A stretch of DNA of 64,000 nucleotides, taken from positions 49,849-113,848 of the forward strand of contig JBFLZZ010000004.1 in the NCBI GenBank assembly GCA_040755255.1, written 5' to 3'. Position 1 is the first letter of the stretch; each line of letters starts with the position of its first letter. Of the stretch, positions 19,066 through 22,505 are shown one piece after another. The DNA is from Thermodesulfobacteriota bacterium. Its GTDB lineage: Bacteria; Desulfobacterota; Desulfobulbia; Desulfobulbales; S012-135. The position numbers were made by a program, and so were the translations under genes. The notes under the pieces are model-generated. The model did no database searches. It saw only the letters and a program-made list of their open reading frames with translations, and was not told where the DNA came from.

Positions 19066-20520
19066 TCACCCCGTCGACTTGTCAACTTGCAAGCCTGACC
19101 CTAACCGCACCACTTCGATTGAATCAAGAATAACCCTCCCAATATATGCACCGGCATTTCGCTTTAGCCCCCTGAACAGATCAAGAAGAGTTTTTTTGTC
19201 CTGATAGTCCTCGCAGCCAAGCAACTGCACGATTGCGATAGTCAAATATTCAGGCAAATATTCGCTAGTGATAATTTTTCGAGAAAAAACCTCCTGAATC
19301 TTTTTCTTTTCAGATGATTCAATTTTATCTTTGTATTTAATCAGGACGTCAACGATATATGGTGTAAATTGCGGGAAAAGATCTGCTAGTTCAGGAAGGA
19401 GTGAGAAATATATGTATTTTTCTGAACCTAAAACAGATTTGATAAACGATTTGATGTCGTCTGGTTCAGTTATTTTCTTTTCCTTGATGGAGTTAAATAG
19501 TTCTCTAGGGTCACTCTCTTTAAGTTTTGACAACTCAGCCAGATTGGGAGCGCGGAACCGAGTAGGAATCGTACCGCCATAACCTGCCATTAGACGAAAT
19601 TGTGGCTCTGGCTCTTCGGAAGATGTTTTTTCTTTTTTCTTATTTTCTGGAGGTGCACTTGTTTCTTTTGCTTCTTCTCCGGAGATAGGTTTGAGGCTGG
19701 AAACATCTTCAATTTTTGTCTTCCGCTGATTTATCGTTAAACCTTCAAGCCAGAGACGCTCAATCAGTTGAGTGAGCCAATAATGAGCGGTATGAGCATT
19801 AGGAGCGAACAACCTGTAGTCATCGACAAAGCGACAAAATTGCACCCCGATTGACAATAAATAATTGTCTACTTCCAAGAGTGCTGCTTCAGCCAGAATT
19901 CGGCTAGCATTTGAGCCGACTGGTAACGAATAAGAGTCGCGATTTGCCCAAAACAGAAGCAATTCGTTGAGCTGTTTTACTCTCGTTTTTTCAAACCCAT
20001 TCGACAGCAAAATGGATTCAAGTCTATGAATATTTAGCCGGTCATAAAAATTTGCAATGTCGCAAGTAACGAGGACCTTGGTGCTTTTCTGTCGAACTTT
20101 CTGTGAGACATGCTTTTTAAATGAAGTGATATTGTATTTAGTGTCGAAAATATACCCGTTTTGCGATTTGAACCGATATGAGAAAACAACCTTTGTGATT
20201 TTCTTAGGCCGAAGACTTTCCAGTTGATCTGCAAAAGTAAGAGATAGGGCAAGAAATTTGATTGTGTCTAAAGGATGGATAAGTGCACATCGCCTGAAGT
20301 CAAAAGGGCCTCCTTTAGGTAGCAAAACATGATCAATTTGAGCTATTTCTAGGGATTCTAGGGAGTTGCCCTTGATGCACTTGGTAACATTTTCTATTAC
20401 CTTCTTTTGAAATAGTTTGTTTCTGAGCAAACGAAGTTCGGTAGGGGCAGTGAAGATATCCGTTAGCCCTTCTTTCAACACATTTTGAACCGATAATCTT
20501 GTTGCTTTGTCTATTTCCAT
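19066..20520 (-). CDS. Free-standing reverse transcriptase (Abi/UG-like, 484 aa) with a helical C-terminal domain
   Basis: RT motifs occur in order: LPKGGPFDFRRCALIHPLD, CDIANFYDRL, SLPVGSNASRILAEAALLEVD, RFVDDYRLF (FVDD at 19819-19830), GLTINQRKTKI. A K/E/S/P linker follows, then about 170 aa of helical sequence. The gene is strikingly AT-rich relative to its flanks. Confidence 0.85.
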   Translation of the reverse strand: MEIDKATRLSVQNVLKEGLTDIFTAPTELRLLRNKLFQKKVIENVTKCIKGNSLESLEIAQIDHVLLPKGGPFDFRRCALIHPLDTIKFLALSLTFADQLESLRPKKITKVVFSYRFKSQNGYIFDTKYNITSFKKHVSQKVRQKSTKVLVTCDIANFYDRLNIHRLESILLSNGFEKTRVKQLNELLLFWANRDSYSLPVGSNASRILAEAALLEVDNYLLSIGVQFCRFVDDYRLFAPNAHTAHYWLTQLIERLWLEGLTINQRKTKIEDVSSLKPISGEEAKETSAPPENKKKEKTSSEEPEPQFRLMAGYGGTIPTRFRAPNLAELSKLKESDPRELFNSIKEKKITEPDDIKSFIKSVLGSEKYIYFSLLPELADLFPQFTPYIVDVLIKYKDKIESSEKKKIQEVFSRKIITSEYLPEYLTIAIVQLLGCEDYQDKKTLLDLFRGLKRNAGAYIGRVILDSIEVVRLGSGLQVDKSTG

Positions 20521-21344: not shown

Positions 21345-22041
21345 GATCGACCGGGTAGGTCAGGAGCCTTGCGGCTCCCTTCCCCCCTCAGAACCGTACG
21401 TGACAGTTTCCCGTCATACGGCTCAAGCGCCTGCTAAGGTTCCCCTTGTTGGGGTTCCCGCAATTAATAATTGCTTCACGATAATGACAGACTGTCAGTA
21501 TAGCCGAAACTTAAGGGCGCACCAGCACAATGGCCGTCGTTTGCTTTCCCTTATGCTACTGATTCACTCCGTTTTCTCGTGAATAGGCACCTGCCAGAAG
21601 TCTGCCTCCTTGCGGAGCCGAGAATGTTGCACTCGGTATCCATGCCATTACAGCATGACATTCGCTTCTTAAGGCATCTCGACCCAGACCTCCAACAGCT
21701 TGCCTTGCGGTTAGCCTGCCCATTGGGCGAAGGACCTGGGGTACCACGTTCCACGTTTTTACCTTTACGGGCAACTTAGGCGGATCTTGAACGCCGGTGG
21801 AAATTGGGTCCCGTGCAGGCACGTTAGCGACCTGCAACCTCTCCGACACGCGTAAACACACGGAAACACGTCTTCGACCTGTTAATCCCCGTAGGTCTGG
21901 CCACAACTGACGGCGCGTGAAGATCTTTGCCTACTCTCGCCATATTGCCCCATCCTAGCCCTTAACCGGGTGGGATTCCCGGACGGGTTTCCGCCTCACG
22001 GCTTCCTCCCAATTCGGTACATTGTCAGGAGGGTTTCGCAC
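21345..22041 (-). ncRNA. ORF-less group II intron-like ribozyme (about 700 nt); both boundaries approximate
   Basis: Minus strand 21424->21391 reads GAGCCGTATGACGGGAAACTGTCACGTACGGTTC. This is a near-consensus domain V with the AGC triad, GAAA tetraloop and 2-nt bulge geometry. A domain VI-like GCAA-capped helix follows (21345-21388) with a bulged A. GTGCG occurs at 22041->22037 (alternative GTGCT at 22066). No RT or other ORF lies between. Confidence 0.65.
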
Positions 22042-22135
22042 CCCGTCATCAGCGCAACGGCAGCACGCCTCCCTAGGATACCGGCGGGGACACGCCGGGT
22101 GATCAGCCAGCACTTAACATGCTGTTATCACATAT

Positions 22136-22157
22136 AAAAACGCGACTTCGTGTCGCG
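22136..22157 (-). terminator. Intrinsic terminator-like hairpin (minus strand)
   Basis: Minus strand reads GTCGCG-ACGAA-CGCGAC... i.e. cgcgac/gtcgcg 6-bp GC stem (22141-22157) followed by TTTTT (22136-22140). Confidence 0.45.
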
Positions 22158-22505
22158 ACTAACGCTAGTGGTGAGGGGCCGGCCTAAAACAGGGGTCATG
22201 TGGGGGTCAGGCTTCCAAGTTGTCAAGTTTCTCAAGCTCAGCTTTGTGTGTTCTCACCGTGTCTACCCGTTTTGGCGCGGTCCTCGCCGTACTGCGTGTA
22301 CTGTCTCGTCGCAGCCCGCTTGCCTTCGCGTTCTACTGTTGATTCGGAATGGAAAAGGCCCCCTTCGCCCCGGCCGACGTCGCAGCGCAGTCACTCTCCT
22401 GAGCCTGCGGACACAAGATCTTCTCCTATTTGACCGGCGAGGACATCCTCGCCGTCATCATCACGCCCGAGGCCTGAATGTACTGAAAGAACTGTTCTTC
22501 ATCGC

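Follow-up and report, generated by a model that had tools for sequence, protein, structure and literature searches.

An ORF-less, probably non-autonomous group II intron of the chloroplast-like/IIB1 type and its dispersed lineage in environmental bacteria

The TeI3 introns of Thermosynechococcus elongatus are a group of 17 ORF-less group II introns that carry a single deletion of subdomain IVb and are mobilised by IEPs acting in trans (Mohr, Ghanem and Lambowitz 2010, PMC2882425), and the TeI4 introns have been assigned to the CL/IIB1 class (PMC2882425). A different kind of ORF-less intron is represented by the HYERs, which were defined as members of class IIC (PMC11754743, PMC12990946). We analysed an RNA encoded on the minus strand of a Thermodesulfobacteriota contig, in what is called here the window, i.e., the whole stretch of 64 kb under study. 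We conclude that it is a well-preserved ORF-less group II intron of a known kind, probably non-autonomous and TeI3-like, and that it is neither a IIC/HYER RNA nor the partner of the reverse transcriptase (RT) encoded nearby.

Limits, predicted fold and class of the intron

An Rfam search of the whole 64-kb window at gathering thresholds gave two matches on the minus strand: RF02012 (group-II-D1D4-7) at 22099->21958, with 87 bits, and a full-length match to the domain V/VI model RF00029 at 21426->21350, with 68.5 bits and an E value of 2e-11. No further Rfam match, and no second intron, was found in the window. The initial annotation, made from the letters alone, had suggested running the group II models and had reasoned that a match confined to domains V/VI would indicate a 3' fragment; the RF02012 match supplies the 5' half as well. 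The near-consensus domain V that it described at 21424->21391 and the GCAA-capped domain VI with a bulged A, which is A 21356, were both borne out by the RF00029 match.

The limits of the intron follow from about 165 related loci with which it was compared. When one genome per species was scanned with a domain I motif pattern, 120 loci were obtained; viral contigs gave no match. A further 45 contigs came from metagenomes, scanned with a 23-base motif of the domain IV 3' hairpin. By BLAST against the scanned loci, L050 was alignable with the region over 834 nt at 82% identity, and the full-length introns L101, L028, L048, and L097 were about 81% identical over the first ~500 nt (81% nucleotide identity over the 5' 500 nt for L101) and aligned again over domains V/VI. 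Homology to these five loci starts 1 nt before the supposed terminator hairpin, and the flanks are unrelated; on the 3' side, all family copies end in ...CCUACCCG(A/G)Y. Sharp homology breaks in many independent copies, the IBS1–EBS1 pairing across the 5' boundary, and an RNA contig that joins 21350 to 22158 thus place the limits at 22158->21350, where a complete ORF-less group II intron of 809 nt lies, with 5' UCGCGAC... and 3' ...CCUACCCGGU as its termini. The limits first given, 21345-22066, have therefore to be extended by 92 nt on the 5' side. When 540 nt upstream and 850 nt downstream were compared with all fetched loci, only the target motif and the RT start were common to them, which rules out a larger composite element. 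The predicted parts are as follows (all on the minus strand).

21350–22158, minus strand: complete ORF-less group II intron, CL/IIB1 type (Rfam matches at both ends, homology stop at both ends, head-to-tail RNA contig)
22159–22164, minus strand: IBS1 (CGUUAG) in the 5' flank (pairs 6/6 with EBS1; CGUUA/NGUUN in the same place in other copies at unrelated sites)
22133–22158, minus strand: intron 5' end with UCGCG, local hairpin CGCGAC-ACGAA-GUCGCG and U-run; 5' strand of helix I(i)/(ii), which closes domain I (family-wide motif; pairs with 21763-21745, compensatory changes)
22099–22131, minus strand: stem-loop IA, GUGAU...AUCAC with a variable tip (covariation)
22081–22098, minus strand: stem-loop IB, CCGGCG-UGUCCC-CGCCGG (RF02012 alignment, compensatory pairs)
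21952–22079, minus strand: stem IC with IC1/IC2, holding an internal GTGCG (22041-22037), the junction GACAAUGUA (22026-22018) and CCGUGAGG (RF02012 alignment, RNAalifold)
21769–21950, minus strand: stem ID, with two tetraloop-receptor halves, UAUGG at 21944-21940 and CCUAAG at 21780-21775, the EBS1 hairpin, and a loop GGGGAUUAA (21890-21882) tentatively taken as EBS2 (RNAalifold)
21822–21827, minus strand: EBS1 (CUAACG), loop of the hairpin 21836-21814 (pairing with IBS1)
21683–21739, minus strand: domain II (RNAalifold, compensatory pairs)
21595–21665, minus strand: J2/3 and domain III, three-way with one GCAA-capped arm (RNAalifold, compensatory pairs)
21426–21591, minus strand: domain IV stub (alignment with full-length L101/L093; junction common to 12 copies; compensatory changes in the IVa stems)
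21391–21424, minus strand: domain V with AGC triad and GAAA loop (RF00029; compensatory pairs within the lineage)
21353–21387, minus strand: domain VI, GCAA-capped, with bulged branch-point A 21356 (RF00029; both consensus folds)

The initial annotation had pointed to GTGCG at 22041, about 650 nt upstream of domain V. The sequence is indeed present at 22041-22037, where it belongs to stem IC1 as its 3' strand; being paired in RF02012 and just 16 nt away from the IC1/IC2 junction, it was rejected as a 5' splice site. Two hairpins that had been placed outside, on the 5' side, proved to be parts of the intron. The terminator-like one (22157-22141), with its U-run, makes up the first 23 nt and corresponds to a motif found across ~100 family members, in which the canonical 5' end of group II introns leads into a small hairpin, GUGCGAC-NNGAN-GUCGCA; within this motif, the first two bases are UC in the window copy and its own subclade. 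The other, described as a second GC hairpin, is stem IB (22098-22081). Behind the 5' hairpin, the U-run forms the closing helix I(i)/(ii) together with a covarying A-run from the 3' end of domain I, and its conservation in the lineage is due to this pairing.

In the consensus fold computed with RNAalifold from seven ORF-less relatives of three subfamilies, all six domains are present in the standard arrangement, and 92 of 230 predicted pairs are compensatory. Domain I, of ~415 nt, comprises IA, IB, IC, and ID. Domain V has the AGC triad, 2-nt bulge, and GNRA loop expected of a group II ribozyme, and the branch-point A 21356 lies 7 nt from the 3' end and is unpaired in both consensus folds. In group II introns, an 11-nt tetraloop receptor of domain I interacts with the GAAA loop of domain V; both halves of such a receptor (UAUGG and CCUAAG) were found here in the sequence of domain I. 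The EBS2 candidate, loop GGGGAUUAA, can form 9 bp with positions -16 to -8 of the flank in L132/L144 only, and 4/9 at the window site.

The class was deduced from the nearest full-length relatives, L101, L028, and L093, which encode an IEP. That of L101 is a 460-535-aa open frame with RVT_N, RVT_1, and GIIM domains, in which a domain search found no HNH domain. Compared with all PDB chains, its best match was the TeI4h maturase/RT (6ME0), with an E value of 3.9e-154 over 446 aa, versus 5e-36 for the GsI-IIC RT and 2e-40 for LtrA (IIA). Because the IEP of the relatives is far nearer to TeI4h than to the IIC RT, and because domain I reaches ~415 nt, the intron is assigned to the chloroplast-like (CL)/IIB1 class, Rfam type D1D4-7, rather than to IIC; as the window copy carries no IEP, this IEP-based class is that of its relatives. 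These data do not agree with the class C suggested initially, nor with an insertion behind a terminator hairpin, as is the habit of that class, since the hairpin belongs to the mobile unit and homology to copies elsewhere starts 1 nt before it. The suggested likeness to HYERs holds insofar as domain IV contains no ORF, but strict membership fails, HYERs being IIC and this intron IIB1/CL.

Loss of the ORF and dispersal of the lineage

As first noted from the sequence, the intron contains no RT or other convincing ORF: when the internal ORFs were compared with protein families, none matched a credible one. Alignment with L101 and L093 showed that the ORF-less forms keep the Shine-Dalgarno/start region and ~45 IEP codons, and then jump to the post-stop stem of domain IV; the position of the IEP start codon reads ACG in the window copy (21540-21538). 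The retained part (21583-21475) folds as a closed subdomain whose 3' strand, AUCGUGAAG (21483-21475), ends at the deletion junction, indicating that IVa was kept and IVb deleted. Subdomain IVa is the usual high-affinity binding site of the intron protein. Beyond the junction lies the 3' hairpin of domain IV, CGGGAACCCC..GGGGAACCUU, at 21460-21436, and the junction itself, AUCGUGAAG-filler-CGGGAACCCC, is common to 12 complete copies. As judged by these alignments, an ancestor is shown to have lost subdomain IVb and nearly the whole RT/maturase gene in one deletion, and to have kept the six-domain ribozyme and IVa. Descent from an ORF-containing intron by loss of its IEP, one of the two possibilities initially raised, is thus supported by the alignment and the common junction.

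The term "degenerate" that had accompanied this proposal is less fitting, since stems have covaried after the deletion and the lineage has reached many different sites. Among the 12 copies with the common ORF deletion, 50 of 238 pairs are compensatory, including pairs in domains III, IVa, and V, and the domain IV stub is conserved at 0.87-0.92, versus 0.88-0.96 for the core. Since the stub is conserved like the core and pairs have been compensated in copies already devoid of the ORF, the fold was kept under selection after the ORF was lost.

ORF loss has been repeated in the wider family, in which L033 is sister to the full-length L093 and short copies of the Desulfobacter type are nested among full-length ones. 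A single origin for all ORF-less forms of the family was considered and rejected, because L033, L032, the Desulfobacter-type copies, and the window lineage group with different full-length introns, and their breakpoints mostly differ.

All of the 45 metagenome contigs with enough sequence are colinear with the 809-nt element and ORF-less. The 12 complete copies, which include the window copy and L050, are 81-93% identical among themselves, and 11 copies with readable 5' flanks have 11 different flanks, each with a CGUUA-like IBS1. EBS1 (CUAACG) pairs with IBS1 (CGUUAG) at 6/6 positions in the window copy, and at 4-6 of 6 in the others. The shortened RNA is thereby shown to have spread as a separate lineage to many sites in many environmental bacteria. 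This protein-less lineage most likely borrows its protein from relatives; in one case (L138), an ORF-less copy and an IEP fragment with 67% identity to the IEP of L101 were found on a single metagenome contig.

Several arrangements were noted in passing. On each of two contigs (L135 and L159), parts of two copies, 3' in one case and 5' in the other, lie ~2 kb apart in the same orientation, and several metagenome contigs end inside the element; both features are signs of multi-copy status in those genomes. On L138, L141, and L151, copies of the lineage are nested with, or adjoin, another group II type (RF02005, D1D4-6) and its RT, an arrangement that looks like twintrons or intron graveyards. 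Distant family members at L008, L018, L076, and L085 are present as head-to-tail tandem DNA copies, with ...CCCGAY followed directly by GUGYGAC, and L015 has a second, 5'-truncated copy. Homing beside a resident copy and integration of a circle-derived cDNA are candidates for the origin of the tandems.

Intron termini and RNA of close relatives

The consensus group II termini, 5' GUGYG and 3' AY, are replaced in the window copy by UCGCG...GGU. According to PMC4238363, in which Chanfreau and Jacquier (1993) are cited on this point, the first and penultimate intron nucleotides are known to interact. In 52 distinct complete elements, these two nucleotides were G...A in 35 cases, U/C...G in 17, and mixed in none; the U/C...G copies are concentrated in few subclades, so that few independent changes underlie this covariation, which is suggestive but not proof. 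Because the two positions covary without any mixed pair, UCGCG...GGU looks like a compensated, working variant rather than damage.

None of the sequencing runs searched contained the source organism; the best holders had ≤0.21 of its words, and all of these were relatives. Four root metatranscriptomes of a single study contain an ORF-less relative with ~93% identity, covered over its full length at an assembler depth of 150-1200. This cover ends with the intron, none of the contigs continuing into exons at 22158 or 21350. In one root metatranscriptome run only, a head-to-tail contig joins 21350 to 22158 exactly. This joint fits a full-length intron circle; it could instead stem from tandem DNA copies, which are known in distant family members but were not found among the 45 contigs of the window lineage. 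Relatives were also covered at lower depth in salt-marsh and sediment metatranscriptomes. With regard to the window copy, no sigma-70-like promoter was found near the intron, and the 5' hairpin (22157-22141) with its U-run to 22136 was scored as a terminator in an intrinsic-terminator scan. Both observations suggest that this copy may be poorly transcribed.

Neighbouring genes, competing explanations and known systems

The intron sits in the spacer downstream of glnA, and a small zinc-ribbon gene follows at a distance of 19 nt. The order downstream, all on one strand with the intron, is this 71-aa zinc-ribbon ORF, a Rap1a-like 150-aa ORF, an RT of the DRT8/UG7 type (PADLOC Drt8, E 2e-108), and a RAYT-like transposase. 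The RT gene (window 19066-20520, minus strand), within about 830 nt of the intron, aligns with a 541-aa homologue at 90% identity up to residue 469 only; there follow 15 unrelated residues and a stop, at the junction with the high-GC RAYT gene. The RT has thus lost about 72 C-terminal residues and is probably the remnant of a defence gene. The intron adjoins a low-GC island (32-48% GC versus 60-65% for the host).

Two further observations concern this neighbourhood. At one locus (L006:7835-8087), an unrelated group II intron of the D1D4-6 type lies 210 nt after the stop of a 72%-identical DRT8 homologue, so that a group II intron is found near DRT8 in two of four distinct neighbourhoods examined, the window counted, with differing types and sides; shared residence in mobile-element hot spots is the likely reason. 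Within the spacer downstream of glnA, 22258-22403 (minus strand) is ORF-free and recurs, ~92-98% identical, in unrelated DNA metagenomes, from groundwater among others, with high summed contig depth (X1, X2). It had no match in Rfam or among the fetched loci, and may be a conserved RNA of the glnA 3' region or a repeat.

The explanation that we favour, and hold to be probable, is a structurally intact, non-autonomous, TeI3-like CL/IIB1 intron. Its transcript would fold, EBS1 would pair with the CGUUAG immediately upstream, and the intron would be excised in the two steps usual for group II introns, with splicing aid and reverse transcription supplied in trans by the CL-type IEP of a full-length relative, bound at IVa. 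The excised RNA would then reverse-splice into new DNA sites containing CGUUA. The window copy itself may have arrived by retrotransposition at a site with a good IBS1 and a poor IBS2, and it is this poor IBS2 pairing that points to an ectopic site. Lying between genes, it would be neutral for the host and without functional tie to the neighbouring truncated DRT8 gene. Several DRT families use structured ncRNAs, and an RNA that shares its strand with the DRT8/UG7 RT and lies no more than about 830 nt away could be conceived as the ncRNA partner of this enzyme, encoded 0.8 kb upstream as its template or scaffold; the initial annotation had likewise singled out the position upstream of an RT as unusual. 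This position is not conserved. At six loci with 72-90% identical RTs, the upstream genes are unrelated (OLD-family, IS91, or unknown), no group II RNA was found there, and homology begins only ~20-40 nt before the RT start codon. Moreover, two unrelated genes separate intron and RT, the RT is itself truncated, the intron copies adjoin unrelated sequence elsewhere, and none of the 45 contigs of the lineage had a match to DRT8, the zinc-ribbon gene, or Rap1a. The absence of a conserved neighbourhood contradicts the proposed partnership, which we regard as scarcely credible, and since the intron is missing upstream of DRT8 homologues and these three genes from the lineage contigs, the adjacency is coincidental.

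Two other explanations retain the intron but dispense with a helper. An inert relic, brought in with foreign DNA or by an old retrotransposition, neither spliced nor mobile and intact-looking because young, would agree with the adjoining low-GC island and its shortened DRT8 gene, the lack of a promoter-like site nearby, the absence of any other intron in the 64-kb window, and the poor IBS2 pairing. We nevertheless consider it unlikely, because the IBS1–EBS1 match is perfect and domain V, the branch site, EBS1, and the receptor motifs show no disabling change. A slightly smaller chance is given to a stand-alone ribozyme, i.e., a IIB1 counterpart of HYERs or an RNA-only mobile element, kept for an activity of its own and not as a helper's passenger; this activity could consist in hydrolytic cleavage of CGUUAG-like DNA/RNA or in protein-free reverse splicing. 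Such a ribozyme would explain why a lineage old enough for 81% identity has kept every domain with compensatory changes, why all sufficiently long sequences among the 45 contigs are ORF-less, and why relatives are abundant as RNA; moreover, a protein-free IIB1 intron hydrolyses and reverse-splices into DNA in vitro (PMC11754743), and endonuclease activity has been described for ORF-less IIC introns (Liu et al. 2024, cited after PMC12990946). However, IVa with its covarying stems is better suited to protein binding than to RNA-only life, the different sites with an IBS1 match each are those expected of retromobility, which requires an RT, next to one copy there is a fragment of an IEP from the same family, and the class is not IIC. 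As for the lineage as a whole, we think it unlikely that it lives without a cognate protein, as a IIB-class analogue of HYERs or as an RNA-only mobile element accumulating as circles; in that case, its unusual termini, U1...G(n-1), might be an adaptation to hydrolysis or to the formation of circles, and not to lariat splicing of the ordinary kind.

The annotation of this region should be corrected accordingly: the "terminator" after the glnA spacer is the 5' end of the intron, and no relation exists between the RNA and the DRT8 remnant. With dozens of metagenome contigs, a fold under selection, and abundant RNA, this protein-less IIB1 lineage is a convenient natural set in which to ask how parasites of parasites spread between genomes, whether IIB1 RNAs can act alone as the IIC HYERs do, and how the contact between the first and penultimate nucleotides tolerates a U/C...G pair.

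Compared with known systems, the intron resembles C.te.I1 of Clostridium tetani in that both are group II introns of bacteria, lack an ORF, and may function in the absence of a cognate IEP (PMC3919590, PMC4424553), but C.te.I1 is single-copy, gene-embedded, and alternatively splicing, whereas the window intron is intergenic and belongs to a dispersed repeat lineage. The joint found in the RNA of a close relative, where the 5' end follows exactly upon the 3' end, recalls the circles of RmInt1 (PMC4238363), although it was seen here in one assembled metatranscriptome contig only, for which a tandem DNA origin is possible. With HYERs, as far as they are described in PMC11754743 and PMC12990946, it has in common that the RNA is an ORF-less group II intron of 0.6-0.8 kb whose catalytic core is intact and whose exon/target-binding site measures 6 nt, but HYERs are of class IIC, whereas the window RNA, known here from its sequence, is IIB1/CL, has a large domain I, and has kept IVa. 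TeI3 differs in being one family in one genome with proven driver IEPs and G...A termini, whereas the window lineage, with U/C...G termini, is found in many environmental genomes at 81-93% identity and its helper is inferred. The two have in common the CL/IIB1 class, as indicated here by relatives whose IEP has TeI4h as its best PDB match, a single IVb deletion that left N- and C-terminal ORF remnants and spared IVa, and an ORF-less form that has multiplied to many sites with good EBS/IBS1 pairing.
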